DNA of 64,000 nt from Candidatus Nomurabacteria bacterium (GCA_020632075.1 JACKGH010000001.1:131216-195215); one strand, 5' to 3'. Shown: positions 23,480 through 43,000, counted from the stretch's first letter. The notes: a model not told the origin generated them from the sequence alone. A program made the numbers and translations.

Positions 23480-26400
23480 ATGAATAATTCATTTATTTTT
23501 TCGCGACGGACAATTACTGCGCGTGTGTACGCAATTGTTACGATCGTGTCTTTACTATTGAGCGCTTTTCCAGCGTCTTTTTTTGTCGCTGAAGCGGCAG
23601 TTGGCCCAACAATTGAGCCGCAAGAAGAACCGGTAACGGTGTTCGTGACTGGTGAAGAAGTACCATTCACTGCCGACGATAACGGCTTTGCAGATGGACA
23701 GACTGTATATGTATCGCTTGCGTCAAGCAACGGCGGTGTGTTCAGTACTGGAAACAATGGTGGCGCTTGTACAAGTGACTTTGATAAGACAAGCATTACT
23801 ATTGCCAGCAACAAGAGCACTGCTTCATTCTGTTACAAGAATGATACAGCAGGTTCTGACACTATCACTGCAACATTCTCATCAGACGGTGAGACTGATG
23901 TGATCGTGACCTACGATGTCACGTTGGTTACAGCACCTGGTTACTTCTGTAAGGCAGAAGGTAACGAAGGTTTCCACAAGCAGACACTAAATCCAGCTGA
24001 AGCTCAGGAATTGCATGATGGTGATGATGCCGGTCTTATCGGACCTGGTGTCAATGAGCACAACATCATTCCACCGTTTGGCGATTTTCCTGGCTACAAC
24101 TGGGACGCTGCGGGAGAGGCTATCTTTGGCAACGATTGTGTTGAGCCAGTGGTCATTGACGTGTGTCCAAACATCGACGGACCACAATCAGAGGTGCCAG
24201 CCGATCATCATATTGACCAGGCAGGTAACTGTGTAGAGGATCAACAGCCACCAGAGAAGGTGGATAACACCTGTCTCCTTCCAGATGGTGATTTTGAGGC
24301 GTTCACTCGTGGCCCGATCTTGTACCCAGCAGAAGATACTCTCGAGGAGATCTTTGCAGCCGCTGGCTATGGTTCAGTAGATGTAGACAACGAGCAGATG
24401 AGTACTGAGACTTGGTCTCTAGAGTCTCTTGATACTGACACAGTAACGCTAAAGGTGACTGTGCTTGGCAAGCAGGCTGGAAATACTCAGACCTTCGGGT
24501 ATTACGCTGCTGGCAATACTGGAAGTTTTGTCTCACTGCTTTCGGTTCCGACTGCAGTCGTTGGAGACTCAGTGGAAGTTGAGATTCCAGGTCAGACTAT
24601 TGGTTTCGGCCTTATGACCGTTGGCAACCCATCAGGTAGTTGGTACTCAGAATTCGACTTGAATTCAGGAGACCAAGATAATCTCGCGGTATACAACCCA
24701 GAGGAGAATGTATACCTCTTAGCTTTTGAAGATCGCCCAGAAAGTCATGAAGGTTATGACAATGATCACAACGACTTGGTACTGAAGGTTGAAGTACTTG
24801 AATGTACTGAAGGTCCTGGTGAATGTGTCCCAGAACGATACGTGTTTGCTGACAATGTTGGGTCTTCAAACCAAGGTCTTACTAAGGGTGGTGCAGCAGT
24901 AGCTGTAAATCGTTCAAACCCAGAAGATGCAACTGGTGATCCAGATTGGACCTCAGGCGGTAGCACTGGTTTCTACAGTCTCGGCTTTGGTGGTTGGATC
25001 ATCGTTTCATTCGATAAGTACGTGGTAAACGTAGAAGGAAATGACTTGTCGATCCACGAAGCTACTAATGGCACCTATCCACTAGAAAAGGCACGTGTTG
25101 AGGTGAGTCAGAATGGCTCAGAGTGGCATGTGCTATCAGAAGAAGCTCACAATGACAGTTCAGAGGGTGGAGACGGCGTAACACTGCTTGATTTTGATGA
25201 GACAGGACTCTCATGGATCAAGTATGTCCTTATCACTGATACAACCGACCCATCACTTCATGGAAATGACGCAGACGGATTTGATCTCGACACTGTCGAC
25301 GCTACCTACGTAGTATGTGACGAGCCAGAACCAGATCCAGAAATGATCGCGATCCATACTTACAAGGTGGTGTGTACCGATGAAGCAGACCTGCCAAACT
25401 GGAATACCGTGCAAAATGGTGCACCGACCATTACCGGCAACACAGCCGCTGATTGGGTAGCAGAGCACGACAGTTGTCGACTAGTAGAAGGTTGGCAGTT
25501 CCAGTGGGCGCCATACGGCACCAGTAACCCAGGTGACGCACTCTATGGTGCGGCTGGCGGTAACTGGTCAACACCATTTACTGGTACCACTAATATCCTC
25601 TTGTCTGATCTCAATGACCAGAACAAGCTCTGGATGCGAGAAGTGCTTGAAGAGGACTACATCCCATTCACCTTTGCTTCTGAAGGAAGTAAGAATATCA
25701 ATGATGTTACAGCTGAATTCTACTGTCACCTCGATGGACTCAACTACGACAACTACGACCGTATTGATGGTGTAGAAGCTGATGGTGAGTACTACTGTGT
25801 CGCTTGGAATGCACCAGTAGAGCCAGATGTAGAATTCGGACCATACTGTGGAGACGGAGTTGTACAAGGCTGGGAGCAGTGTGACGAAGGTTCAGCTACT
25901 GACACCTGTACTGCGTACTGTACCAACCAATGTACAGACAACCTACAGCTCGTGAAGATCACTCTTGATCCACAGGCTCCTGAATCTGACAGTTTCGACG
26001 GTATGATCTACCTTGGTTCTGAGTCAAACCCGATCCCTAACGGAACTTGGTTCAACTTTGCTGAAGTTGGTGACGCTGCAGCTAATCACACTGCACTCGC
26101 AGCAACAGGTCTAGCGGTAGAACGTACTGCCACTGACCTTGTGTTGGCGGTAGAAGGTGGTAATGCAAACAATCACTTTGATTACGTCTTCGGTTCGATC
26201 GAGACCCTCGGTATTGACCTTGGTGCAGCTGATCGAAGCCCGATCACTGGTTGGCCACTTGAGAATACTGGTAGCTACGTAGACGTCTTTGACGTCGACG
26301 AAGATACTGACTCAGTAGACTTCAAGTTCTGGCTCACTACTGGTGACGATGCTGCTTCAGTAGCTGTAAACGCTGGTGAGGCATTCGATTGTCCAGAATG

Positions 26401-27883
26401 TAATGCAGAAGTAGAAGCACGTATCGTGCTTCAGGACGGTGAAGAGATCATGAACGGTGGTGAAGGTAACCTTCTTCCACAGGTGATCCTTGGTGATGGC
26501 TCAACGGTGCCATTTGGAGAGTGGTTCAAGCTTTCTGAGGCAAATCCTGGTCCATCAGCTACTTGGATCGATGATGCTGAGACAGTAACCAATTACCCAA
26601 GTCCAGCAGACCTCGACGGACTCTTTGTGAGCCGTGAGGGTAACGGACAGGTAAAGGTGGCGCTCTACGGCTTCCATAACCCTGGTGGTGATGTGAACTA
26701 CGAGTCACTCCGTGCGACGATCGAGTTCAATGATGCTTCTGTCGCGTCTGCAGCCCAGATTCCAGGTGACTTCAAGCTTGAGAATCACCCAGAAGACGAC
26801 CTTGTACTCTCAAACGACAACTTCGATTCATTCGCAGTTGCGGGAGATTCAATGTCAGTTGATTTTGACTTCTGGGTAGATACTGCTGCTGATGGTATTA
26901 CCATTACCCTCGACGAGGATTCAGTTGCGACTTGTGACGAAGACACAGATCCAAAAGACCCAGAGCCAGATACCTTCATCATTGATGGTAAGAAGTATGG
27001 TGTAGATGGTGAAATCGCAACTGGTTTGGCTGGTTGGACCATTAACTTGACTGATGGTGATGAGATCATCATGAGTACTACTACTGATGAGACCGGATAC
27101 TACTACTTTGTGGTTGAGGAAGGTTACTACGAGGTGCACGAGGCTATGCAGACCGACTGGGTGCAGGTAGAAGTCGACGAGAACGGTTATCCAGTAGATA
27201 CAGACTCTGATCTTGAGCACTGTTCATTTGAGGTCTACGAGTATGACTACCTCTATGCTCGCGTGACCGAACAGCTTGTACAGGTCGCGCCAAACGGATA
27301 CGACTGTGACTTCTACAACGAGTATGTGGGAGACGATGAGCCAGAAGATGTGCTTGGCTGTACTGATCCAGACGCATTGAACTATGTTGAAAATGCGACA
27401 CTGGGTAACAAGGACGCTGAGAACTGCAACTACTCAGATGATGGCGATAATGAAGAAGAGCCAGGTGATCAAACTGGTACCCGAACCCGACGTCCTGCAC
27501 CTGAAGGTCAGGTACTCGGCGCAACCACCCAGTGTCCATTCCTTGAGGACTATATGCAGATCGGTTGGGAGAATGATCCATGGGAGGTCACTAAGCTACA
27601 GCTCTTCCTCAGTGCTTTCCGCAGTCTCTTTGGTGGCGGTGAACAGCCAGTAACTGGTGTGTTCGACCGAACCACAGACGCAAACGTGAAGGCCTTCCAG
27701 GAGTACTTCCGTAGCGAAGTGCTTGATCCATGGTACGTGAAGGGAATTGTGCCGCATGACCAGCCAACTGGCTTTGTGTACAAGACCACACGATGGAAGA
27801 TCAACGATATCATCTGTCCAGGCTGGGAAGCATACCCAAGCTTCGATGGTGAGAATCTACAGTCTAACGTAGATATCGACTAA
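23480..27883 (+). CDS. Large secreted surface protein (1467 aa) with a DUF4114-like motif and a C-terminal peptidoglycan-binding-like domain
   Basis: Signal peptide. VLAFEDRPESHEGYDNDHNDLVLKVEV matches the EDL..GGD.DFNDLV signature of DUF4114. C-terminal GVFDRTTDANVKAFQEYF resembles PG_binding_1. The protein is acidic and Thr/Asp-rich. Confidence 0.75.
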   Translation: MNNSFIFSRRTITARVYAIVTIVSLLLSAFPASFFVAEAAVGPTIEPQEEPVTVFVTGEEVPFTADDNGFADGQTVYVSLASSNGGVFSTGNNGGACTSDFDKTSITIASNKSTASFCYKNDTAGSDTITATFSSDGETDVIVTYDVTLVTAPGYFCKAEGNEGFHKQTLNPAEAQELHDGDDAGLIGPGVNEHNIIPPFGDFPGYNWDAAGEAIFGNDCVEPVVIDVCPNIDGPQSEVPADHHIDQAGNCVEDQQPPEKVDNTCLLPDGDFEAFTRGPILYPAEDTLEEIFAAAGYGSVDVDNEQMSTETWSLESLDTDTVTLKVTVLGKQAGNTQTFGYYAAGNTGSFVSLLSVPTAVVGDSVEVEIPGQTIGFGLMTVGNPSGSWYSEFDLNSGDQDNLAVYNPEENVYLLAFEDRPESHEGYDNDHNDLVLKVEVLECTEGPGECVPERYVFADNVGSSNQGLTKGGAAVAVNRSNPEDATGDPDWTSGGSTGFYSLGFGGWIIVSFDKYVVNVEGNDLSIHEATNGTYPLEKARVEVSQNGSEWHVLSEEAHNDSSEGGDGVTLLDFDETGLSWIKYVLITDTTDPSLHGNDADGFDLDTVDATYVVCDEPEPDPEMIAIHTYKVVCTDEADLPNWNTVQNGAPTITGNTAADWVAEHDSCRLVEGWQFQWAPYGTSNPGDALYGAAGGNWSTPFTGTTNILLSDLNDQNKLWMREVLEEDYIPFTFASEGSKNINDVTAEFYCHLDGLNYDNYDRIDGVEADGEYYCVAWNAPVEPDVEFGPYCGDGVVQGWEQCDEGSATDTCTAYCTNQCTDNLQLVKITLDPQAPESDSFDGMIYLGSESNPIPNGTWFNFAEVGDAAANHTALAATGLAVERTATDLVLAVEGGNANNHFDYVFGSIETLGIDLGAADRSPITGWPLENTGSYVDVFDVDEDTDSVDFKFWLTTGDDAASVAVNAGEAFDCPECNAEVEARIVLQDGEEIMNGGEGNLLPQVILGDGSTVPFGEWFKLSEANPGPSATWIDDAETVTNYPSPADLDGLFVSREGNGQVKVALYGFHNPGGDVNYESLRATIEFNDASVASAAQIPGDFKLENHPEDDLVLSNDNFDSFAVAGDSMSVDFDFWVDTAADGITITLDEDSVATCDEDTDPKDPEPDTFIIDGKKYGVDGEIATGLAGWTINLTDGDEIIMSTTTDETGYYYFVVEEGYYEVHEAMQTDWVQVEVDENGYPVDTDSDLEHCSFEVYEYDYLYARVTEQLVQVAPNGYDCDFYNEYVGDDEPEDVLGCTDPDALNYVENATLGNKDAENCNYSDDGDNEEEPGDQTGTRTRRPAPEGQVLGATTQCPFLEDYMQIGWENDPWEVTKLQLFLSAFRSLFGGGEQPVTGVFDRTTDANVKAFQEYFRSEVLDPWYVKGIVPHDQPTGFVYKTTRWKINDIICPGWEAYPSFDGENLQSNVDID

Positions 27884-31617: not shown

Positions 31618-32868
31618 ATGAAACATGCCTGGATCGGTCTCCTTGATTGCAACAACTTCTTTGCGTCGTGCGAGCGGCTGTTTCGGCCGGATCTGGTAGG
31701 GAAGCCGGTTTTGGTACTTTCAAGTAATGACGGTTGTGTGGTGGCGCGCTCCCAAGAGGTAAAGGACATTGGTGTCCCCATGGGTGTCCCTTACTTTCAG
31801 ATAAAGGACATAGTGAAAAAACATAGTATTACAACGTTTTCTTCGCATTTCGCACTCTATCGCGATATTTCGCGGCGAGTGATGACGGTCTTACGTGAAC
31901 AGCTCGATACTGTCGAACAGTACTCGGTAGATGAGGCATTTTTTACTGTCACTGAGCACCCTGAAGAGGTAGCAAAGCGACTGAAACAGGAAGTGGAACG
32001 AGTGGTAGGGATCCCGGTTTCGGTTGGTATCGCACGCACCAAAACCCTCGCAAAATACGCCAATGTTCTTGCCAAAAAAGGCGTAGGAATTAGGGTACTT
32101 GATACGCCTGAATTGCTCACAACTGCCTCACAGATCCCCCTAGTAGCCATCTGGGGAGTAGGAGGCAAAATGGAGCTTCGTTACAAGCAACACGGCCTTG
32201 CAACGGTGGCGGATTTGCTGGCGGCAGACACTGCTCGGATCAGTCGATTGTTTGGTATTTCTGGCCTGCGTTTGCAGCGTGAACTCAGTGGCGAGCCGTC
32301 GTATTTTGTAGCGCCACGACTCGAACCGCAGCAGAGCATTATGAGCTCGCGTTCGTTTAAAAATACCGTTTCTGACTCATCTACGCTCATGGATGCAGTG
32401 GCGTATCACGTACGTCATGTGGCGGCTGATCTCCGCAAAATGGAGCAGGGTGCAACGCAGCTTGCAGTCTCCATTCGGCCGAGTAGACACGGGGATTTTA
32501 TGCTGCGTGGCGGTACGGTTTTGACTACGTTTGATACACCGACCAGTGACTCGTTTGAGCTTATGCGGGCTGCTGCACGGTTGACGGAGAAGCTGTATGA
32601 GGCGGGTGTGCCATACAAGAAAGCTGGAGTGACGGTGAGTGGCTTGCGTTCACTTGAGGTGCAGCAGGAATCGCTATTTGAACCAGCATCTACACCCAAG
32701 GCTACGGCGGCGGTTTCTGAGCTTATCGATACACTCAATGATCATACAGGCAGGGAAGTAGTGTTGCTTGGTAGTCGACTTAAAAGCCAGAAGTGGCAGT
32801 CGCGCCATGATGTGCGCTCGCCGGCATATACGACGCGTTGGTCTGATGTTGCTTCTGTGTCCGCATAA
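31618..32868 (+). CDS. umuC: Y-family translesion DNA polymerase (UmuC/DinB-like)
   Basis: The N-terminal motif is LLDCNNFFASCERLFRPDL (the DCNSFYASCE signature). SVDEAFF carries the catalytic D-E. A GIA..K-LAK HhH block is present. The start is taken at MKHAWIG (31618) rather than 31570. Confidence 0.85.
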   Translation: MKHAWIGLLDCNNFFASCERLFRPDLVGKPVLVLSSNDGCVVARSQEVKDIGVPMGVPYFQIKDIVKKHSITTFSSHFALYRDISRRVMTVLREQLDTVEQYSVDEAFFTVTEHPEEVAKRLKQEVERVVGIPVSVGIARTKTLAKYANVLAKKGVGIRVLDTPELLTTASQIPLVAIWGVGGKMELRYKQHGLATVADLLAADTARISRLFGISGLRLQRELSGEPSYFVAPRLEPQQSIMSSRSFKNTVSDSSTLMDAVAYHVRHVAADLRKMEQGATQLAVSIRPSRHGDFMLRGGTVLTTFDTPTSDSFELMRAAARLTEKLYEAGVPYKKAGVTVSGLRSLEVQQESLFEPASTPKATAAVSELIDTLNDHTGREVVLLGSRLKSQKWQSRHDVRSPAYTTRWSDVASVSA

Positions 32869-33184
32869 AACATAATCGACATTTGTACTTAACTTTCTAT
32901 AAGCGTCATGTCTCATCGAACTCAATTTTTCATTGAAAATGCACGATTTTACACTAATGCAAAGGTCAGTCAAAAATAGTTATCAACAGATACTTTCGGA
33001 CAAAGTAAAAAAGACCTAGTAGAATGTTGGAAGATCGATTGAAGTGACGAAGTGTCCATAACAGGCTGAGCCTTTTCAAAACATTGGATACCGAGTCATC
33101 TCCACAGAAAACTTCAATCGAGAACTTCCTCGTTTGTACAACGCAGAAGTAAAAGTTATTCACAAAACTATATAAATAATAAAC

Positions 33185-34330
33185 ATGTTCGCAAAAGCAA
33201 CTAATGTTGGCTTTGCGCAACGGGTGGTCGCGACACTTGTTGCTAGTGCAATGTTACTCTGGTCAATCGGAGTGTATAGCACTGCGCAAGCAGCCAACCT
33301 AACAGTTATTAGTGATACCCTCTCAGACTCAGATTTGTCAGCTGTATCAAATCACACCATTACCTTCTCCACTCCTTCGGGAGTAGCTGCTGATGGTTCA
33401 ACAATCACCATCGACTTTACTGATGGTCCGTTTGATACAACGGGTCTCTCATTTGATGATGTTGATGTAAGTGTTGTTGGTACTGGTGACCTTACACTTG
33501 CAGCAGTTTGTGGAGGTGGTGGTGATGATATTGGCGCTGCCTTCGCTGGTAATGTGCTTACTCTAACAGTTTGTACTGGTGAAGGTGGTGCAATCGCTGC
33601 ATTCGGCACAACTACTATTGAGATCGGAACAAACGCAACGTTCCAAACAACTGGTAACAATCAGATCGTAAATCCAGGTGTAGCTGGCTCATACGAGTTT
33701 GTCGTTACTGCGGGGACAGCTCCAGATACAGGTCGCATGAGGGTAGCTATCATTGACAACGTACTCGTTACGGCTATCGTCGATACGTCCTTTGACTTCA
33801 CTATTTATGGTACTGCAACTGGTACCGCAGTTAACGGAACAACCACTAGCGGTTCATCCACTCCAACCACGATTCCATTCGGAACTATTGGTAACGGTGA
33901 TGTAAAGACCATTGCACAACGCCTAACAGTAGCTACTAACGCTCGTAACGGATTCGTAGTAACGGTGCACACAGACGGTGACCTTCAGTCTTCAACTGGT
34001 GCTATCATAGACACCTTTGCCAACGGGGCAGACTTATCAACTACCTCGAACTCCTGGGTGTCGCCAGCCAACATCGTAACCGATGAAACTACGTGGGGTC
34101 ACTGGGGTATGACCTATGACGATGATGCTACAGTAGACCTTGGAGCAAATGAATACGTAGCAGCTTCAACAACGCCGCGAGAAGTCTTCAGTCACGATGG
34201 TCCAGCAGATGAATGGACAACAAATATTGGTTCAACAACTGTTGGATACCAGATCGAGATCACGGCACTTCAAGAAGCGGCAGATGACTATAGTACTATC
34301 TTGACGTACATAGCAACTCCGACCTTCTAA
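33185..34330 (+). CDS. Secreted Thr/Gly-rich surface protein; its N-terminal motif is shared with 36017..37918
   Basis: Signal peptide. SDTLSDSDLSAVSNHTITF has a parallel SDTLSDSGPNEQSNHTFKF in the dockerin protein. The C-terminal Y-x-T-I-L-T-Y-I-A-T-P weakly resembles a WxL-type C-terminal motif. Confidence 0.55.
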   Translation: MFAKATNVGFAQRVVATLVASAMLLWSIGVYSTAQAANLTVISDTLSDSDLSAVSNHTITFSTPSGVAADGSTITIDFTDGPFDTTGLSFDDVDVSVVGTGDLTLAAVCGGGGDDIGAAFAGNVLTLTVCTGEGGAIAAFGTTTIEIGTNATFQTTGNNQIVNPGVAGSYEFVVTAGTAPDTGRMRVAIIDNVLVTAIVDTSFDFTIYGTATGTAVNGTTTSGSSTPTTIPFGTIGNGDVKTIAQRLTVATNARNGFVVTVHTDGDLQSSTGAIIDTFANGADLSTTSNSWVSPANIVTDETTWGHWGMTYDDDATVDLGANEYVAASTTPREVFSHDGPADEWTTNIGSTTVGYQIEITALQEAADDYSTILTYIATPTF

Positions 34331-34351
34331 GTTCTAACGATGCAAACAAAA

Positions 34352-34376
34352 AACTTCCTTTACTGGAAGTTTTTTG
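34352..34376 (+). terminator. Rho-independent terminator AACTTCC-tttact-GGAAGTT + T-run
   Basis: Read directly from the sequence. Confidence 0.65.
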
Positions 34377-34437
34377 TTGTATACAACCCGGGTCTCACAC
34401 TGCTGTAAGGTGGTATGATGGTAAGGTTAATCTTTAA

Positions 34438-35538
34438 TTGAACACTTATTATTATATGCTATCGCATCGCTCTGTTGTGGCTCTGTCTGCTCGATTTCTC
34501 ATTATATTTTCTGCTTTTCTTGCGCTCAGTTTTTTCTTCTCACTTCCAGTTCATGCACAAGAAGGACTTGGTATCAAGCCTGCCGTTATCGAAGAATCTC
34601 TTGATCCTGGTGCGGTGCAGCAGTATGTGATCGAGGTAGAGAACTTGAATCCTAGAGATCAAGAATACTTTGTGTTCACTAGAAACATCTCTGGTGTTGG
34701 ACCTGGTGGTGTTCCGATCTTTGCACAAGATAATTTGGAGAAGACAGGATATGAGTTAGCTGACTGGATAGAGCTTCCATACACACAGGTTACCATCCCT
34801 GCAGGTCAGAAGGTTTCTCTTTCCATCACTATGAACGTGCCTGAAAATGCTTCACCTGGTAGTCACTTTGGTGGTGTATTCTTCTCAGTAGAACCTCCTG
34901 AGGTGGATATGGTGGGCGCAGCGATTGGTTACCAAGTTGCCAATATCATCAGTATTCGTATTTCTGGTGATGTGATCGAGAAGGCAAATATCCGACAGTT
35001 TTCAACAGATAAATTTATCTATGGTGCACCAAAGGTCAATTTTAACGTGCGTATCGAGAACGAAGGTAATGTGCTCGTTCGTCCGGTTGGTCCGCTTGAG
35101 ATCCACAACATGCTTGGTAACAAGGTTGGTACGATCATTTTCAATGAAGCACAAGCTGGAGTCTTTCCAAAGTCAACCAAGGAGTTTGACGAAATCGTCT
35201 GGGATGGTGGTACGACTGGTTTTGGTCGCTATGAAGCGATTTTGAGTCCGGTATACGGTGAAACAGGAGCTATCAATACAATGTCGAGTACGGTAACCTT
35301 CTGGGTTCTGCCGATGAACATCATTGGTCCGGCACTGATCGTGTTGGCGGTGGTTCTTTTGGTCACATTCGTTTTTGTGCGGTTGTATATCAAGCGTTCA
35401 CTTGCACACATGACTCAAGGTCGTCGCATTATTAGACAGCGTCGTCGTGGTGGTCCGTCATCCCTCATGCTGTTCACTGTTGTGATGCTTACCGTGACCG
35501 CACTATTCCTCATCGTATTGCTAGCGCTCTTTGCGTAA
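34438..35538 (+). CDS. Cell-surface protein with signal peptide, two beta-rich domains, and a C-terminal TM anchor with an Arg-rich tail (DUF916/DUF3324-like architecture)
   Basis: The topology is read from the sequence. The family call rests on a weak motif impression only. Confidence 0.5.
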   Translation: MNTYYYMLSHRSVVALSARFLIIFSAFLALSFFFSLPVHAQEGLGIKPAVIEESLDPGAVQQYVIEVENLNPRDQEYFVFTRNISGVGPGGVPIFAQDNLEKTGYELADWIELPYTQVTIPAGQKVSLSITMNVPENASPGSHFGGVFFSVEPPEVDMVGAAIGYQVANIISIRISGDVIEKANIRQFSTDKFIYGAPKVNFNVRIENEGNVLVRPVGPLEIHNMLGNKVGTIIFNEAQAGVFPKSTKEFDEIVWDGGTTGFGRYEAILSPVYGETGAINTMSSTVTFWVLPMNIIGPALIVLAVVLLVTFVFVRLYIKRSLAHMTQGRRIIRQRRRGGPSSLMLFTVVMLTVTALFLIVLLALFA

Positions 35539-35557
35539 GCTGCGGTACACTATCTGT

Positions 35558-35965
35558 ATGGATATACAGCACAGCACATATCACAAATTTTTACGCGTAG
35601 CACTTGTCGTGTGTGCGGTGGTGTTGGTGTTTGAGAGTGGGCTGTTGAGTGAATCAACCGCACGAGTTGCTGAGGGTACACATGCATATCTCGCAAACGC
35701 AGTTGGAATGTCTGCCTCTGTACAGCCAACAGAACTCAATACCCTTACAGCTGAATTGACTGCTAAACAGCGTGAACTTGATGCTCGCGAAGCAGCACTT
35801 CGTGAGCGAGAAATTGCAGTCGATCTTAACTCTGGTGCTGTTAGCTCGAATACGTCTTCATATGTACTCTCCAGCATCCTGTTCGTACTGTTGGTGCTTA
35901 TCATACTCAACTACGCATTAGACTATTTACGGTCTCGTGAGGAGCGTGAGGTGCAACCTGTGTAA
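35558..35965 (+). CDS. Small membrane-anchored coiled-coil protein
   Basis: TM helix, an AELTAKQRELDAREAALREREIAV coiled coil, then a C-terminal TM. Its frame overlaps the previous gene's 3' end. Confidence 0.4.
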   Translation: MDIQHSTYHKFLRVALVVCAVVLVFESGLLSESTARVAEGTHAYLANAVGMSASVQPTELNTLTAELTAKQRELDAREAALREREIAVDLNSGAVSSNTSSYVLSSILFVLLVLIILNYALDYLRSREEREVQPV

Positions 35966-36016
35966 TGCTGCAAAAACCCTTAGTTCGGCAGGGTACAATG
36001 TACTAGAAAGTACGAC

Positions 36017-37918
36017 ATGAAAGCTGCTTTGAGACAGTGGATTCAGTTATTTGTGGTGCTCATCGTGTGTGTGATGGGGTACTTGTCTGTGCCACAATCT
36101 GCCGAAGCCCTCAACAACATCATTGAGTACAGCGACACCCTCTCCGACTCAGGTCCTAACGAGCAGTCAAATCATACGTTTAAGTTTGTGCTCAATGCTG
36201 ATGCAGGTCCTGGTACTGTGTTTGAATTTACACCACCAGCTGGGTTTGCCATTCTGTCTACCACTACGTTTGCTGAGCGTAATGTTGAACTGTGGGTCAA
36301 CGGCGCGGTTCGCACCTCAGCTGCAGTTGCCTCTCCGGGGGTAGATCAAGTTGATATCACGACAGGATCTCCTGGTCTTATCCAGTATACTCTCGCGCCT
36401 GACTACAGCATTACCTCGGGAAGTAGATTAGAGTTTAGGGTTGGAAGTCAGGCATCAACAGCTATCCAGCCCTATGCTGTGTATAGTACAAGCACCGGGT
36501 CTACGACGGTGCCTGGTGATGCTGAACCGATCGTGAATGCAGGAACGACCGGTCTTCAGAAGGTCGCACTTGAAGTTATTGATGGCACAACGATCGCGAA
36601 CATCGATTTTCTCATTTTCCTGGTGGAAAAAGTGTCAGTTCCGGGTGTTGATACCACTGAGGAAATTCCACCGTATCGATTCAATGGTTCTCCGACTAGC
36701 TCAGTTGGTGGTACGACACTCAGTGTAGAGATCTCTCTCGAAACCGATGAGTTCGCGATCTGTAAGTTTGATACGGTCGCTGGCACATCTTTTGCAGCTA
36801 TGCCTCATACTTTTTCAAACACCGGTCTCATCTTCCATTCGCAAGTAGTAGCTGTGACGCCAGACTCGGTACAGCAGTTCTATGTGCGCTGTATTGACGA
36901 CGAGGATAACTTCAATATTGATGACTACTTGATCATCTTTACGGTCAACGAGATCCCAACCGGTAGTGCAAACACTGAAGGTAGCACGAGTGGAGACGGT
37001 TCAGGTTCTGGTGATGAGGGTACAGGTACTGGTAGTGGAGGCGGAGGTGAGTCTGGTGATTCAAACGGAGAACAACCACTTGAAGGTGGTTCGTCAGGCT
37101 CTGGTGGTTCAGGCGGTGGCGGTGGCGGTGGTTCAGGCGGCAATAGTGGCGGCACTTCCGGTGGCGGCTTTGAGGATGATGCACCGTATCAGAGCGGAGA
37201 CGGTCGCGTTATCATTTCTGGATACGCATATCCAAATAGTACGGTTGGTATTTTGGTTGATGGTAATTTCTTCGACACCACGCGTGCCAATTCTTCTGGT
37301 GAGTACTCGATCACGCTCGATGAGATCGCGCGTGGTGTGTACACGTTCGGTGTGTACGCAAGTGGTCCAGACGATACAAGGTCTTCAACTTTCAGCACCT
37401 CGTTTACAGTTACAGGAGCACGAACGTCCGAGCTTACAAACGTAAACGTCGCTCCATCAATTTTAGTTGAACCAGATCCAGTCGATCCTGGTGAGACACT
37501 GACAGTGTCAGGATACGCGCTGCCAAATGCAACAGTTTCGGTGCAAAACGGTAAGTTACGCTCGACGATCATTAAAGATTTTACACTTACGTCAAACGCT
37601 TCTGGTTTTTGGAGCACGACGATAGATACGTCTAGTTTTTCAGAAGGGACTTACCAGATCAGGGCAAAATCTGAGCAGACCGGGGGAGCAAAGACAAACT
37701 GGTCTGAGTACACATATTATGGTGTTGGTGGGGAAGCGGATGTGCCGATCAATGCCGACCTGAACCGTGACGGAAAGGTTAACCTAGTCGACTTCTCGAT
37801 CCTTCTTTTCTGGTGGGCTTCTAATGGCGGGGATTCAGATCCGCCAGCAGATATCAATCGCGATGGTACAGTGAGCCTTACTGACTTTTCAATCATGCTC
37901 TTTAACTGGACAGGTTAG
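36017..37918 (+). CDS. Secreted surface protein with a Gly/Ser-rich linker and a C-terminal type-I dockerin domain
   Basis: Signal peptide. The dockerin duplicated segment is DLNRDGKVNLVDFSILLFWW ... DINRDGTVSLTDFSIMLFNW. The poly-Gly linker GGSGGGGGGGSGG is also present. Confidence 0.7.
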   Translation: MKAALRQWIQLFVVLIVCVMGYLSVPQSAEALNNIIEYSDTLSDSGPNEQSNHTFKFVLNADAGPGTVFEFTPPAGFAILSTTTFAERNVELWVNGAVRTSAAVASPGVDQVDITTGSPGLIQYTLAPDYSITSGSRLEFRVGSQASTAIQPYAVYSTSTGSTTVPGDAEPIVNAGTTGLQKVALEVIDGTTIANIDFLIFLVEKVSVPGVDTTEEIPPYRFNGSPTSSVGGTTLSVEISLETDEFAICKFDTVAGTSFAAMPHTFSNTGLIFHSQVVAVTPDSVQQFYVRCIDDEDNFNIDDYLIIFTVNEIPTGSANTEGSTSGDGSGSGDEGTGTGSGGGGESGDSNGEQPLEGGSSGSGGSGGGGGGGSGGNSGGTSGGGFEDDAPYQSGDGRVIISGYAYPNSTVGILVDGNFFDTTRANSSGEYSITLDEIARGVYTFGVYASGPDDTRSSTFSTSFTVTGARTSELTNVNVAPSILVEPDPVDPGETLTVSGYALPNATVSVQNGKLRSTIIKDFTLTSNASGFWSTTIDTSSFSEGTYQIRAKSEQTGGAKTNWSEYTYYGVGGEADVPINADLNRDGKVNLVDFSILLFWWASNGGDSDPPADINRDGTVSLTDFSIMLFNWTG

Positions 37919-37975
37919 TTCATAGTGTGGGTAATTATGATTTTATTTACGAGCGAGACAGTATAATGTTGTTGT

Positions 37976-38449
37976 ATGTCCTTTCTGCAAAGACTCAAGG
38001 GTAGGGGCGTCCGCGATGGTGAGGGGCTTTTGTCTGACGCTGAAGAAACAGCGGTTGATAAAGTTGCTCAGCTACATGTAGACGTATTTCAAACAGAGCG
38101 TCTCATTGTGGTGTATGCGCAGTCAGCAGGCGCAGACATGAATGATGTACATGTGTCTATCGAGGGCGATGCTGACATTGTGTTGATCGAAGGTAAGCGT
38201 GTGCGACCAGAGTACATCGTCTTCCCAAAGAAAAAAGTTAAAGGATCATTTGTGGCCGAAGAGTGTGTCTGGGGTGATTTTTACCGTCGTATCATTTTGC
38301 CTGAGAGTGTGAACATCGATAAGGCGGAAGCAAAGATTAAAAACGGTGTGCTTATCTTGGTACTCCCACTGCTTAAGCCAAGTGAGAAAGAGAAGGTCGA
38401 ACTTCGAGTTACTACTGGACGTAAGCCACTAAAGAGAGATACCAAATAA
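37976..38449 (+). CDS. Hsp20/alpha-crystallin family small heat-shock protein
   Basis: ACD core ...VEECVWGDFYRRIILPESVNIDKAEAKIKNGVLILVLP. Confidence 0.8.
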   Translation: MSFLQRLKGRGVRDGEGLLSDAEETAVDKVAQLHVDVFQTERLIVVYAQSAGADMNDVHVSIEGDADIVLIEGKRVRPEYIVFPKKKVKGSFVAEECVWGDFYRRIILPESVNIDKAEAKIKNGVLILVLPLLKPSEKEKVELRVTTGRKPLKRDTK

Positions 38450-38455
38450 TTGTAA

Positions 38456-40006
38456 TTGTTCATTTGTTCTATGTTGTACCTTGTGAGACGAATTGTTCCT
38501 TACCTAATACTCCTCGTCAGTGCGTGGGTATTTTGTGCGTTTGGAGCACTGACTGCTTTTGCAGCAGATCTCTCACTTTCTCCAAGTACAGGTTCGTATT
38601 CTGTCGGTCAGACATTCACTGCGACCATTCGTGCCTTGCCAAGTGGCGATAACATTAACGCAGTTGAGGCGACTTTAAAATTTGACCCTGCTGTTCTCTC
38701 GGTTGTCAGCTTGAGTAAGAATGGTTCTGCATTTTCACTTTGGACGACAGAGCCAAAGTTCTCTAACTCTGCCGGAACCATTGAATTTGGCGGCGGAAGT
38801 CCAACTCCATTTACTACGAACTCTGATCTGGTAGTTGTTACCTTTAGAACTGTTGCTGAAGGTTCTGGTTCTGTCACATTTTCAAATGCATCAGTGCTCG
38901 CTGCAGATGGTCGCGGTACAGATGTTTACAAAAATGGAGCTAGTGCAAACTACACCATCACCGGTGCAGCAACTCCAACCCCTACACCGACACCAGACAC
39001 AACTCCAACCCCTACCCCAACTCCAGATGAGGAAGATGATGACCAGGCGATTATCTTCGGGGATCCGCCTAGACAGCCAGAAATTGGTTCACAAGTTTTC
39101 TTAGACCCGGATGTCTGGTACAGCGAAACTGAAGGTTTGTTTACCTGGACTCTACCATTTGATGTTAACGTAGTTGCAATCGAGATCACTGACGATCCAG
39201 AAAACCGTCCAGAGGAAAATGAGGATGCGGTTATCGATCCACCAGTTGAGGAATTCTTGATTACAAAAGATATCATTACTGATGGTGTCCAGTATGTAAG
39301 CGTCAACTTCAAGAACCAAGTTGGTTGGGGAGCAGTGACAAACCGTAAGCTCATGATCGACACAACTGCACCTGAGCCATTTGCGATCAATGTGCAGGCT
39401 GGTACTTCTAAAGACTCATTCCCGATTCTTCGGTTTGAGGCAAATGACCGCACGTCAGGCGTCGAGTACTATGACATGACCATCGCTGATAAGGAGCCGA
39501 TCCGCATCACGCCTGATGAAGCTCGCCTTGGCTATTTGCTCAAAGAACTTGAGGATGGTACCTACACTGTGAAAGTTGTAGCGTCTGACATGGCCGGTAA
39601 CACCCGTGAAAGTAGTGTGGCTGTACTGATCACTGCTGGTTGGGTAAAACCAGTTGAGGTGGTAGACGAAGGATCATTCTGGGATTTTCTCACACCGATC
39701 AATCTCTTCATCTTCTTCTTGCTTGTTATCATCATTCTGCAGATCATCTACTTCTGGTACGAGCACAAGAAACTTAAGGAGCGAGAGGAAAAACTGCGTC
39801 GCGAAACGAGAGAGATCCAGGATCAGATGGAGAAGATCTTCTCAGCACTTCGCGATGAGATTTACGATCAAATAAACACCATCACAAAACGAAAGCGTTT
39901 GTCAGCAAAGGAGAAGGAAGCAGTTGAAGCACTTACACAAGCACTTGAAGTCTCCGAGACCTTGATTGAAAAGGAAATCAATGATGTAAAGACAATTCTC
40001 AAGTAA
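38456..40006 (+). CDS. Cohesin-domain surface protein with a Thr/Pro linker, a C-terminal TM helix and a cytoplasmic coiled coil
   Basis: Signal peptide. The cohesin-like beta-sandwich segment runs LSLSPSTGSYSVGQTFTATIRA...ATLKFDPAVLSVVSLSKN...VVVTFRTVAEGSGSVTF. The TPTPTPTPD linker, the TM helix INLFIFFLLVIIILQIIYFW and the KLKEREEKLRRE coiled coil follow. Confidence 0.6.
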   Translation: MFICSMLYLVRRIVPYLILLVSAWVFCAFGALTAFAADLSLSPSTGSYSVGQTFTATIRALPSGDNINAVEATLKFDPAVLSVVSLSKNGSAFSLWTTEPKFSNSAGTIEFGGGSPTPFTTNSDLVVVTFRTVAEGSGSVTFSNASVLAADGRGTDVYKNGASANYTITGAATPTPTPTPDTTPTPTPTPDEEDDDQAIIFGDPPRQPEIGSQVFLDPDVWYSETEGLFTWTLPFDVNVVAIEITDDPENRPEENEDAVIDPPVEEFLITKDIITDGVQYVSVNFKNQVGWGAVTNRKLMIDTTAPEPFAINVQAGTSKDSFPILRFEANDRTSGVEYYDMTIADKEPIRITPDEARLGYLLKELEDGTYTVKVVASDMAGNTRESSVAVLITAGWVKPVEVVDEGSFWDFLTPINLFIFFLLVIIILQIIYFWYEHKKLKEREEKLRRETREIQDQMEKIFSALRDEIYDQINTITKRKRLSAKEKEAVEALTQALEVSETLIEKEINDVKTILK

Positions 40007-40037
40007 CGTTTACGAAAAATCCACAACTTTGATGCAT

Positions 40038-40069
40038 ATACCGCGCACTTCTACCAAAGTGCGCGGTAT
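40038..40069 (+). terminator. Hairpin ATACCGCGCAC-(10-nt loop)-GTGCGCGGTAT; its right arm overlaps two TATAAT -10-like hexamers (40067-40078) upstream of the giant gene
   Basis: Read directly from the sequence. It may act as both terminator and promoter. Confidence 0.5.
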
Positions 40070-40096
40070 AATTATAATTAGCCCTTTCTCTACCAA

Positions 40097-43000
40097 GTGG
40101 GGAATGGGGCTGTAGTTGATGTGAGTGTAAGTAGATTGCACAACTCAATAAAGAATAGAATAAAAGCCAATTTTAAAGCGCCGGAGCGGAGGAAGCAGTG
40201 TTTTAGTGGTGTCAAAAAAGTCTTGCATCCAAAGGTCTTTGTTTTACTTCTTCTGGCTCTGGTGGCGCTTCCTTACGTGCATGCGCAATTTTCATCAGAT
40301 GCGTACTCTATTCGAACCGTACATGTCTTTCCGTCAGTAGTTACGGGTGATGGTTGGAATAATCTTGAATCTATTACTTTCCAGAATCTTGAAGAATACG
40401 CTTTGTTTGATGAGTTTAATGACATCAATTCAGCGACCATGAATCTCAGCAGAGCTTCAATGTATCAGCGTGGGAAAGAGTACGTTGATTCGTCTATTGA
40501 AACAGTGGTCGATCAGAATTCAGATTTGAATGAAGTAGTAGATGATGTTGTGGTTCCATCTGCAGAATCAGTTGCTGGTGGTGAGCAAAGTGGCACATCA
40601 ACACCTGGAATTGAGTCTGCCGAGATGTATGCTTCCACGAGTGCTAAAGCTGAGTCACAAGCTCCTACAGAAGCTGATATTTTGATAGTGCCAGAAACTA
40701 GCGTAGTAACAACAACTGATTCTGTCTCGACTGATCTCTCAACGACGACAGTGCTGAAAAAAGTAGAATCCGTATTTGCCTTAGCGGTTGAGGCAGTTAC
40801 CGAATTCTTTGGTATGGAGACTGCAACTACAACAGTTGAGAAGGTTGTGTCCACGTCTACTCCAGAGCTTGATTTGGAGACATCTCCAACAAGTACTGAC
40901 TCAGTCGTCTTTGGTGCGCAAAGTGAGATGGTGTCAACGAGTGCACTGTTATTAAGCGCAAGCACTTCAGTTGTCGCTGATGTTGTTGCAACATCAGCGA
41001 CAACGACTGTGCAGAGTGAAGTGTCTGTGGAGACAGAGCCTGTTGATTTTGTAGAACCTTCTCAGAACACTGAGTCTGCATCTAGTACTCCGTGCGCTGA
41101 AAATTGTGGATCGTACGAGATAGCTCTTAATGATTTTGGTTATCCACTTGGTGAGCAGGTTGAGATAACTGGTGCTCAATTACGGCTATCATTTGCTGCA
41201 CAAACTCGAACCACCAGAGATGCTATTCCTGAATTTTCTCTTGTATACAGTGTCGATGGTGAACAAACGTGGCTGGCAGCAGGAACTATTCTTATTGATG
41301 AGGAGGTTTCAAATAGTATCAACGGCGGTTTCTTCCTTTTTGCATTGCCTGAGGTCACTGATCAGGTCTCGCTTAATACCTTGTCGGTTAAGCTCAAGTA
41401 CAATGACGATCCATACAATCTTTCTGGCCTGTTTGTCGAGAGTGTCTGGCTTGAGCTCTTTACGATTGAGCCCCCTGAAATGGAACCCCTTCAGGATGTT
41501 GCAGCTCTTTTGGCTGATGATGGCTACTCAGATGAGATGTTGAGCGGCGATATTTTACAGTTGCCAGATGGTGAGCATTTACGCTTTAAATTTACTGACG
41601 ACAACACTGATGAGTCGTTGGTAATCAAGACAACTGAACGTACGTACGAAGGTTTTTCTGAGGTGGCAACCTATTTCAGTGTAACGAACACGAGCGACGA
41701 GGTTGATGACATTACGGTACAAGCGTACTTCCCAGATGGGGTTGGAGAAGTGGTGTCAATAGAAAAGTTTACACAAAATAAGCCTAGAGATGTTGTCGTT
41801 CCTGAGTATCGACCGTATGTGTATCACTGTGAAGCTGGCTGGGAATACGCTGGTGAAGTTACGGCGGAGAGTCTCGAGGAGTTGTCGCAGCAGCTTTCTT
41901 TGCCAAGAATTTCCGCTCCAGCAGAAATACTGGAAACCAGCACGTCGACTGCTTCTGATAATTCAGTAAATCAGGTTGAACAGGTGGCTACTTCGACTGA
42001 GGAGATAGAAGTTCCTACGGTAGAATTTGATCTTCCAGCATCATCTGCAACAACCACTGTGCTACGGCAACTGCCAGGTGTTTCTGCGCTATTGCAGTTT
42101 TCTACTACAACTTTGATCGACAATGACAACGAGTTGTCGGATGTAACAAGTTCGTCGTCAGAGGCTAATTCTGATGAAGCTAATCTTGGCGACGGTGAAG
42201 ATCTGATTGAAGCATATGCTTGTCGAAACACAAATGTTGTGCGTAAGTGTGATGAGTTAGATGGTTCAAATACCGCATGTCGGGTGAATCAGGTAAAGGT
42301 GGCAGAATATGAGGTTGTGAAGTATGCGCCGGGTTGGGTGCAGACAGCTATAGCTGAAGGGGCAATGTCAGAGCCGGGATTCTTCAAAAGGGCGATTCAG
42401 TTTATTGGCTTTGGTCCTGATGTGAAGGAGGTTCCTGAGCAATTTGAAGTACGTACACATACGCCTGATACTCACACTATTCAGCCAGGTGAGACGCTGT
42501 ACTTCAAGATGAATATTGCATTTCCACCGTTCTCTCGTGGTGAGTACTGGATTGAAGCTGTTGGTGATAGTGAGTATGGTCTACTTGACCCGTTCTGGTC
42601 TTCTGAGTGGTCATATCGAATGCCGATACGGGTTTCTAACCCTACAGGAAGCGATCAAACAGAGTACCAAGTCTTCTTTGAACTCGACAGCGCTTTAACG
42701 GATTTCTGGAGTAATGTAAACAGTGATGGTTCAGACATCCGATTCATCCAAGAGTTGCCAAGTGGCACATTTAGCAATGAAGGTACAGCTGTCAATAATT
42801 GGCTTGACTTTGATTTTACGCATCGCATTCCAATCGAAATTCCTGCTGGATCAGTTGATGCTGATCTAACTGATTTCCCAATTTCAATTGATTTGTCTTC
42901 GCTTGGGTCTGACTTTTGGACAAATGTTAAAAGCGATGGTGGTGATGTGCGCGTGTACACATCAGGAGGTACAGAAGTGGCCATTGACCTGGCACACTTC

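Follow-up and report, generated by a model that had tools for sequence, protein, structure and literature searches.

A probable one-cohesin, one-dockerin membrane anchoring cassette adjoining an Hsp20 gene in Patescibacteria

The described systems closest to the locus reported here are the clostridial type I cohesin-dockerin pairs, the anchoring scaffoldins, and cohesin and dockerin modules of non-cellulosomal proteins. Clostridial type I dockerins use a Ser-Thr pair for recognition. Anchoring scaffoldins are attached to the cell wall via S-layer homology (SLH) domains or by sortase. Cohesin and dockerin modules outside cellulosomes were reportedly surveyed by Peer et al. in 2009. Patescibacteria, or Candidate Phyla Radiation (CPR) bacteria, presumably live attached to other cells, and little is known about how their surface proteins are built and anchored. 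A full-text literature search returned no description of a cohesin-dockerin cassette in Patescibacteria, CPR, or Parcubacteria; the nearest mention was of a Saccharibacterium in which an envelope protein with a dockerin domain is essential, and there no cohesin is mentioned (PMC10633639). In this study, we examined a 64-kb stretch of a Candidatus Nomurabacteria genome (JACKGH010000001.1, 131216-195215; hereafter, the window), focusing on the region 36017-40006. Three genes there encode a dockerin-bearing surface protein, a small heat-shock protein (sHSP, Hsp20), and a membrane-anchored cohesin protein. From sequence comparison and predicted structures, we consider that the locus is probably a non-cellulosomal membrane anchoring cassette of Patescibacteria (Candidatus Kaiserbacteria-like), in which one cohesin pairs with one dockerin.

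First, we examined the dockerin-bearing protein. The predicted 633-aa product consists of a signal peptide (residues 1-31), an N-terminal beta domain, a Gly/Ser-rich linker (about residues 311-395), two Ig-like domains, and a C-terminal dockerin. Residues 580-627 matched Dockerin_1 (PF00404) with 27.7 bits against a Pfam gathering threshold (GA) of 22.9 bits. The module is made of two repeats of about 22 residues, DLNRDGKVNLVD followed by FSILLFWW and DINRDGTVSLTD followed by FSIMLFNW, each with a D-x-[DN]-x-[DN]-G-x-[IV]-x-x-x-D loop and then a putative helix. Both Ca-loop strings were present, at 37757-37792 and 37850-37885, and the double motif occurred only once across the six frames of the window. 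A preliminary description of this DNA, made from the sequence, had claimed that the gene ends in a duplicated dockerin segment, and these results bear it out. The Ca-ligand positions 1, 3, 5, and 12 of both loops were invariant among 32 orthologues. When a profile of 13 orthologous dockerin modules was searched against the PDB, the CelS type I dockerin (1DAQ/2MTE) was matched over both repeats with an E-value of 1.4e-5, and nearly all of the 30 matches listed were dockerins. Furthermore, the dockerin was the most conserved part of its carrier, with a mean pairwise distance of 0.205 versus 0.41-0.50 for the rest of the protein (61 close loci). In the AlphaFold model of the carrier, the beta domains had a predicted local distance difference test (pLDDT) score of 75-95 and the linker was disordered. 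Foldseek matched this model only to generic strings of Ig-like domains; the top match, the archaeal S-layer protein 7ptp, was judged not meaningful at a root-mean-square deviation (rmsd) of 22 Å.

The cohesin protein starts with a signal peptide and is predicted to be a type I membrane protein with the cohesin outside and a single transmembrane (TM) helix. Residues 47-155 matched Cohesin (PF00963) with 29.0 bits against a GA of 24.1, so that the Pfam search recommended in the preliminary description placed both modules over their thresholds. In an AlphaFold model built on a 33-sequence alignment, the cohesin module (residues 36-170) was a confident beta-sandwich with a pLDDT of about 85-94. 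Foldseek comparison of this model with the PDB gave only cohesins as the top matches and cohesins as most of the top 30, so that the module superposes on the nine-stranded jelly-roll of solved cohesins. The top matches included Clostridium acetobutylicum CohA2 (6kgf_C, E 2e-9), C. thermocellum OlpC (4dh2), a C. cellulolyticum cohesin (2vn5/1g1k), and those of Archaeoglobus fulgidus (2xdh, non-cellulosomal) and C. perfringens (2w1n and 2vo8). The target-normalised TM-score was 0.70-0.77 with an rmsd of 2.5-3.3 Å. The model was nearest to type I and non-cellulosomal cohesins, and type II and III cohesins scored lower (0.45-0.61).

Beyond the cohesin module, the two Ig-like domains of the anchor carry the SiiE-like motif DGTYTVKVVA.D.AGN, and Big_13 matched there with 24.8 bits, under its GA. 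The stretch HKKLKEREEKLRR after the TM helix fits a positive-inside topology. Two helices, residues 414-477 and 484-515, contain the TM segment and the cytoplasmic tail in the model. The earlier reading of this gene as a cohesin-like segment, a Thr/Pro linker, a TM anchor, and a helical cytoplasmic part therefore agrees with the Pfam, AlphaFold, and Foldseek results. The tail motif …REIQDQMEKIFSALRDEIYDQ…ALEVSETLIEKEINDVK.ILK was almost invariant and more conserved than the cohesin module. Indeed, the divergence of the tail was the lowest of all the modules (0.158 versus 0.34 for the rest of the anchor, 61 close loci), and the tail was still recognisable in a homologue with 44% overall identity (locus L094; L numbers are our labels for retrieved loci). 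Such near-invariance implies that the tail may have a conserved cytoplasmic partner.

Relatives of the three proteins were collected by a word-index search (E<=0.001), which gave 1,040 for the cohesin protein, 721 for the dockerin protein, and 825 for Hsp20. The best 120 of each showed identities of 69-82%, 56-78%, and 83-94%, respectively. Those of them that were named came from metagenome-assembled genomes of Kaiserbacteria, Nomurabacteria, Parcubacteria, or Patescibacteria, and relatives already carry automatic names such as 'cohesin domain-containing protein'. The dockerin protein was 100% identical to 'hypothetical protein KC877_00615 [Candidatus Kaiserbacteria bacterium]'. When each species was represented by a single genome, a scan showed relatives in 122 species, from which 80 loci were retrieved; together with six further loci, they form the close set. 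The cassette is present in at least 122 species-level genomes. The labels of the close loci were nearly all of Patescibacteria type, apart from a few given as plain 'bacterium' and one Legionellaceae (L012).

The gene order of the close loci was constant: the genes for a 381-aa, a 366-aa, and a 144-aa protein were followed by those for the dockerin protein, Hsp20, the cohesin protein, and a giant protein. The order dockerin, Hsp20, cohesin was kept in every close locus with enough upstream DNA. Exactly one dockerin open reading frame (ORF) was found in each of 69 close loci. Within the window, family hidden Markov models (HMMs) detected no second dockerin, cohesin, or Hsp20 module at E<=10. 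As to whether other proteins carry dockerins, which the preliminary description had proposed to check, a motif scan and the family HMM found none in the window. Additional genes occur at the junction of the dockerin and Hsp20 genes: in the complete Kaiserbacteria genome CP060228.1 (L001, 3538-9408) a gene for a 1,956-aa FG-GAP repeat protein lies between the two, and other close loci have inserts of 2-5 kb at or near the same position. Since such inserts recur, additional genes for surface proteins appear to be taken up preferentially at this junction.

We also examined distant relatives. When the cohesin anchor protein was searched exhaustively with HMMER against 1.84 billion cluster representatives, there were 7,799 matches at E<=1e-3, and 1,088 (50%-identity clusters) at E<=1e-30. 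Many were full-length matches at 31-50% identity, which indicates that the anchor architecture is widespread. A metagenome scan led by a 34%-identity homologue gave 570 relatives and 80 loci (L095-L174), and the distant loci were annotated with small HMMs for the dockerin, Hsp20, and cohesin modules. The counts below refer to 46 non-redundant distant loci (about 30-45% identity) with at least 1.5 kb of upstream DNA. An ORF with a C-terminal dockerin was located upstream of the cohesin gene or genes in 44 of these, within 1 kb in 42 cases. Together with the 69 close loci, this puts the linkage of the two genes far above chance. In every segment inspected the dockerin stood at the extreme C-terminus and ended in ...WTG, and its carriers were unrelated proteins of about 180 to 2,344 aa. 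Pfam confirmed the assignments in examples: the 2,344-aa protein of L135 matched Dockerin_1 with 33.1 bits, and L142 gave 31.1 bits for Dockerin_1, 56.9 for HSP20, and 47.6 and 25.8 for Cohesin.

The layout around the pair varied. The commonest, seen in 28 of the 46 loci, has a small membrane-anchored cohesin-like gene in the place of Hsp20 and hence two cohesin ORFs without Hsp20; six loci have one cohesin and Hsp20, and six others have three cohesins and Hsp20. Hsp20 and the small cohesin-like gene alternate downstream of the dockerin gene and upstream of the large cohesin gene (L110, 9923-10903; L142, 8831-13443). Among individual loci, L091 (35% identity) has the dockerin, Hsp20, and cohesin genes and then a giant-like protein, and L093 has a 600-aa dockerin protein, a small cohesin-like protein, and a 593-aa cohesin protein. 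In L089 (38%), a 209-aa protein with three TM segments that ends in a dockerin is encoded directly upstream of the cohesin gene (1121-1750).

Subsequently, co-evolution of the modules was examined by partial Mantel tests, with the remaining modules as controls, in 61 close loci and an independent distant set of 53 pairs. In the close set, the dockerin correlated with the cohesin module (partial r 0.15, p 0.005), and its partial r was -0.01 with the mid domain of the anchor and 0.03 with the tail. In the distant set, the correlation of the dockerin with the cohesin module of the large anchor was strong (raw r 0.73, partial r 0.64, p 0.001); the partial r was 0.03 with the mid domain, -0.08 with the tail, and 0.07 with the small cohesin-like module. 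Since the control domains lie on the cohesin's own polypeptide, the tests largely take out the effect of shared phylogeny. As judged from these alignments, the cohesin module is the only part of the anchor with which the dockerin co-evolves.

Several observations weigh against the anchoring cassette proposed here. The Pfam scores of the cohesin and the dockerin are just 5 bits over the thresholds. A sequence profile of the family's own cohesins matched no PDB cohesin, so that the cohesin identity is carried by the fold comparison. The structural check suggested in the preliminary description came out only in part: the cohesin beta-sandwich was found, and dockerin residues 577-633 were left at a pLDDT of about 30 with no helices, in a prediction that used a shallow alignment and no modelled Ca. 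The dockerin has Leu-Val/Ile/Thr where clostridial type I dockerins have the Ser-Thr recognition pair, and its specificity is consequently unreadable from known rules. Two distant loci, L087 and L094, have no nearby dockerin. Unequal saturation between modules can inflate a mirror-tree signal, and the correlation between Hsp20 and the anchor in the close set, although significant, was not specific to the tail and was treated as uninformative. Finally, Hsp20 is absent from 34 of the 46 distant loci, which means that the cohesin-dockerin pair as such does not require it.

The unfolded dockerin model, the marginal Pfam scores, and the cohesin profile without a PDB counterpart would be expected if the two modules did not bind each other at all; the dockerin would then be a Ca-binding stabilising tail or a glycan-binding tail, and the cohesin a beta-sandwich spacer, both being encoded in one surface-protein operon. 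Orphan dockerin-like modules are also reportedly common outside cellulosomes (Peer et al. 2009), and the essential Saccharibacterium protein is likewise a dockerin-domain protein described without mention of a cohesin (PMC10633639). We regard this explanation as unlikely. The linkage of dockerin and cohesin genes outlasts full replacement of the carrier and of the neighbouring genes, and the dockerin is always at the extreme C-terminus while being the best conserved part of its carrier. Moreover, its co-evolution is limited to the cohesin module with none for the other domains of the anchor, and the cohesin fold is nearest to type I cohesins that bind dockerins.

In another explanation, the true partner of the dockerin is elsewhere, such as the giant protein or a host-cell ligand, and the anchor takes a different dockerin encoded elsewhere. 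This is conceivable in that our analysis spans 64 kb out of about 1 Mb of genome, members of the close clade always have the giant gene alongside, and a single dockerin is accompanied by two or three cohesin genes at some distant loci. However, neither Pfam, a regular expression, nor the family HMM found a cohesin or dockerin in the giant protein, which is in addition missing from many distant loci where dockerin and cohesin are still paired, and the dockerin co-varies with the cohesin of the anchor next to it. We therefore hold a partner outside the pair to be very doubtful.

We return to the anchoring cassette and to its probable mode of action. After export of the 633-aa protein by the Sec pathway, its C-terminal dockerin would insert in a Ca-dependent manner into the cohesin of the anchor. 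This plug would tether the surface protein to the cytoplasmic membrane, there being no SLH-type anchoring at the locus. In other lineages, the same type of anchor may receive other dockerin-tagged proteins of 180-2,344 aa. The preliminary description rightly placed a membrane-anchored cohesin and a dockerin-bearing surface protein in one locus, but its comparison with a cellulosome does not hold in the usual sense. A cellulosome has a multi-cohesin scaffoldin, a carbohydrate-binding module (CBM), and dockerins borne by carbohydrate-active enzymes; here there is one cohesin, no CBM, and a non-enzymatic carrier with Ig-like domains. Hence, 'cellulosome-like scaffold' overstates the locus.

The gene between the two, which had also been reported as Hsp20, matched HSP20 (PF00011) with 39.5 bits (GA 20.8); the NCBIfam Hsp20/Hsp14/Hsp18 models matched it under their cut-offs. 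Its alpha-crystallin domain is canonical (GDFYRRIILPESV...AKIKNGVLILVLP, with the signature G-x-F...LP...A...NGVL). The lack of a signal peptide suggests a cytoplasmic protein, and Hsp20 was the most conserved protein of the cluster across the close loci (69-93% identity). In all 82 close loci for which upstream DNA was available, it immediately preceded the cohesin gene, and the gap nearly always measured <=35 nt. Hsp20 was present in 12 of the 46 distant loci, and of the 20 distant Hsp20 ORFs, 19 abut the large cohesin gene. In L087/L088 (33% identity), where the other neighbours differ and no dockerin was seen, it overlaps the cohesin gene by 4 nt; L094 (44%) has neither a dockerin nor Hsp20. 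The unusual partnership noted at the outset is thus a conserved tight pairing. The spacing of 6 nt given with it needs qualification: the two genes are close, but the value holds only for the TTG start at 38456. Homologues begin with MLYL..., corresponding to the ATG at 38471, and the gap is therefore more likely 21 nt. Either gap is compatible with an Hsp20-cohesin operon.

Comparison of the loci pointed to conserved elements on both sides of this pair. In the window, a TATAAT ends 8 nt before the ATG of Hsp20. The exact TATAAT was found in 61 of 77 unique upstream regions, mostly starting at -14, and TGTGGGTAA was found at -48 to -51 in 58 of the 77; it also occurs in one distant locus (L174). 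The combined pattern of TGTGGGTAA, spacer, and TATAAT occurred once in the window (37927-37967), against 0 expected. To our knowledge, the position of TGTGGGTAA matches neither the sigma-70 -35 box nor known heat-shock operators (CIRCE, HAIR). A TATAAT so near the start codon implies that the mRNA may be leaderless or nearly so. Past the cohesin stop, a strong hairpin (dG <= -15) lay within 110 nt in 94% of 84 close loci; its mean was -24.6 kcal/mol versus -9.6 kcal/mol for shuffled sequences, and the changes in the stem were compensatory. In the window this hairpin has no clear U-tract and is likely a terminator or a processing signal. No Rfam family matched in 32000-41000, and the sigma-70 promoter and terminator scans of the window gave background level only, the conserved elements having come from the locus comparison. 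From the upstream element and the downstream hairpin, Hsp20 and the cohesin gene would seem to be transcribed together as a two-gene unit whose leader is very short or absent.

Whether Hsp20 belongs to the function of the anchor is a separate matter. It may tentatively be seen as a general stress chaperone whose position reflects inherited synteny or shared regulation, which concerns the Hsp20 part of our proposal only and which we rate as possible though on the unlikely side. A canonical cytoplasmic sHSP missing from most of the distant loci fits this, as do the correlation with the anchor that was not specific to its cytoplasmic tail and the synteny, in the close clade, of unrelated genes (S24/IMS, GH18, CAP). 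On the other hand, Hsp20 stays next to or overlapping the large cohesin gene even where the neighbours differ, S24, GH18, and CAP are lost with distance while Hsp20-cohesin persists, and the unit has an upstream element and a downstream hairpin of its own. The most speculative step in our scheme is that the sHSP might serve the anchor from the cytoplasm, as a holdase before export, as the partner of the tail, or solely through stress co-regulation. In a wider form, the locus would represent a general membrane-spanning anchoring system of Patescibacteria, in which diverse adhesins or S-layer-like proteins of 180 to over 2,300 aa bearing a lineage-specific ...WTG dockerin are held by a single-cohesin receptor and a dedicated sHSP engages the tail, clustering, stabilising, or gating the anchor from inside rather than acting as a general chaperone. 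Taken as a whole, this wider form seems improbable at present.

Table 1 Predicted features of the locus and its neighbours, in order along the window
Feature	Position	Strand	Basis and remarks
Secreted protein, 381 aa, family unassigned	33185..34330	+	Conserved across close loci
WxLIP (DUF916)-like surface protein, 366 aa, C-terminal TM segments	34438..35538	+	Pfam WxLIP_PGBD, family profile
Small TM / coiled-coil / TM protein, 144 aa	35531..35965	+	Homologue fused to a dockerin in distant locus L089
Secreted dockerin surface protein, 633 aa	36017..37918	+	ORF, Pfam Dockerin_1 and Big_6, AlphaFold
Dockerin module	37757..37915	+	Two EF-hand-like Ca loops, DLNRDGKVNLVD and DINRDGTVSLTD, putative hydrophobic helix after each, C-terminus ...WTG
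Conserved upstream element of the Hsp20-cohesin unit	about 37926..37967	+	TGTGGGTAA, 27-30 nt spacer, TATAAT
Small heat-shock protein (Hsp20), 157 aa	37976..38449	+	Alpha-crystallin domain at about 41-140; no signal peptide
Membrane-anchored cohesin protein	38456..40006	+	516 aa with the TTG start (38456); 511 aa with the ATG (38471), the likelier start
Cohesin module, extracellular	38561..38965	+	Residues 36-170; Pfam, AlphaFold, Foldseek
Thr/Pro-rich acidic linker	38966..39049	+	Residues about 171-198; sequence, pLDDT <50
Two Ig-like / Big_13-like extracellular domains	39050..39685	+	Residues about 199-410; beta strands in model
Transmembrane helix	39686..39760	+	Residues about 411-435; hydrophobic stretch, then HKKLKEREEKLRR
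Cytoplasmic helical tail, near-invariant	39761..40003	+	Residues 436-516; invariant alignment columns
GC-rich hairpin, 14-bp stem	40037..40070	+	Intergenic, cohesin gene to giant gene
Giant secreted protein, 7,780 aa	40097..63439	+	DUF2341 repeats, pentaxin/LamG-like domain, N-terminal signal or anchor

The coordinates are summarised in Table 1. Almost the entire window is coded on the + strand, with a positive GC skew throughout. The giant ORF that had been noted beside the locus does immediately follow the cohesin gene, and it was always downstream of that gene in the close clade; a C-terminal anchor was likewise not found in its product. We consider that the same surface structure probably includes the giant protein and the WxLIP-like, 381-aa, and 144-aa proteins as well.

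The 366-aa protein matched WxLIP_PGBD with 25.0 bits, below the GA of 27.3; only the PGBD half was matched, and there was no match to DUF3324. Among its 27 orthologues, however, 26 matched WxLIP_PGBD (best E 2e-9), and the family profile matched the solved structure of Enterococcus faecium EfmWxLIP1 (9i25_C) with an E-value of 3.8e-5. In Firmicutes, WxLIP proteins bind WxL proteins in surface clusters, and a WxL cluster is defined by one WxLIP and at least two WxL proteins within four genes (Hassan et al. 2023, PMC10599100). No WxL domain was detected in any protein of the present cluster or, at E<=1, in any of 27 sequences orthologous to the 381-aa protein, and the identity of the locus as a Csc/WxL cluster was ruled out, as it falls outside that definition.

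For the 381-aa protein, no Pfam or PDB relative was found; weak matches to BslA in 3 of 27 orthologues were judged insufficient. This protein and the dockerin protein share the motif N[IL]..x.SDTLSDS.....SNHT..F right after the signal peptide (33296-33367 and 36113-36187, respectively; BLASTP E 2e-4). It could be a common segment for sorting, processing, or interaction, perhaps with the WxLIP-like protein. The N-terminus of the 209-aa dockerin protein of L089 resembles the 144-aa protein, and such a fusion (Rosetta-stone-type) suggests that the 144-aa protein may belong to the same system.

Further upstream, the segment 27981-32868 encodes a CAP-domain protein, a Peptidase_S24 (UmuD/LexA-like) protein, a GH18 protein, a 203-aa protein, and an IMS (UmuC-like translesion polymerase) protein. 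The CAP, S24, GH18, and IMS genes were syntenic with the surface cluster in the closer relatives only, and the GH18 gene, 6 kb upstream, carries no dockerin. The lack of an evident glycoside-hydrolase arsenal, stated for the genome in the preliminary description, goes beyond the 64 kb analysed here. Another envelope protein, a large secreted one of 1,467 aa (23480-27883), gave sub-threshold matches to SdrD_B, PG_binding_1, and DUF4114.

If the proposed binding is true, a Ca-dependent plug would tether variable surface proteins to a conserved membrane anchor, and the reach of cohesin-dockerin biology would widen from enzyme assembly to the general architecture of the envelope in a major lineage of uncultured bacteria. 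Protein engineering would gain a new orthogonal class of cohesin-dockerin specificity, and there would arise the specific question of what role an sHSP has for a membrane anchor. If a dedicated sHSP were involved as well, surface display, and possibly host contact, would be coupled to the cytoplasm. Should the two modules not bind, what is left is a pair of well-annotated domains encoded by adjacent genes. The parts themselves are ordinary and already automatically named; what is of interest is that the cassette is conserved, that its modules show a co-evolution signal, and that it is coupled with Hsp20.

Compared with known systems, the Hsp20 resembles IbpA/Hsp20 sHSPs in its canonical alpha-crystallin domain, its predicted cytoplasmic location, and its size of about 150-160 aa, but its gene is close to, and in some relatives overlaps, that of a surface-anchor membrane protein; the literature searched offered no earlier case of an sHSP that serves a cohesin protein specifically. 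Like the WxL/WxLIP (Csc) clusters of Firmicutes, the locus encodes, among secreted surface proteins, a 366-aa protein whose WxLIP_PGBD-like domain, sub-threshold in Pfam, is accompanied by another Ig-like region and a membrane anchor at the C-terminus; it differs in that no WxL domain is detectable, and the known WxL clusters have no cohesin and dockerin. The non-cellulosomal modules of the C. perfringens GH84C/GH33 toxin complex (2w1n/2vo8) and of A. fulgidus (2xdh) are similar in that they are used for something other than cellulose, usually occur once or a few times per genome, and are among the top fold matches. Unlike the present locus, none of those we found is described as a conserved adjacent cassette of an anchor and a dockerin carrier, or as coupled to an sHSP.

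The clostridial type I pairs (CipA/OlpC with CelS/Xyn, and C. acetobutylicum CohA2-Doc0917) have the same cohesin fold, with a TM-score of 0.70-0.75 to 6kgf, 4dh2, and 2vn5, and a two-repeat dockerin with Ca ligands at positions 1, 3, 5, and 12 that is C-terminal on a secreted protein. The locus differs from them in its single cohesin, its lack of a CBM, its non-enzymatic carrier, and its host, a Patescibacterium and not a cellulolytic Firmicute; in addition, its dockerin has Leu-Val/Ile/Thr instead of Ser-Thr, and unusually hydrophobic putative helices (FSILLFWW). Finally, the anchoring scaffoldins (C. thermocellum SdbA/OlpB/OlpC and Ruminococcus flavefaciens ScaE) are likewise cell-bound proteins that hold a dockerin partner with one or a few cohesins, and OlpC was among the best fold matches. 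In contrast to these, the anchor of the present locus would be held by a TM helix with a near-invariant cytoplasmic tail of 80 residues, and its gene is coupled to that of an sHSP.

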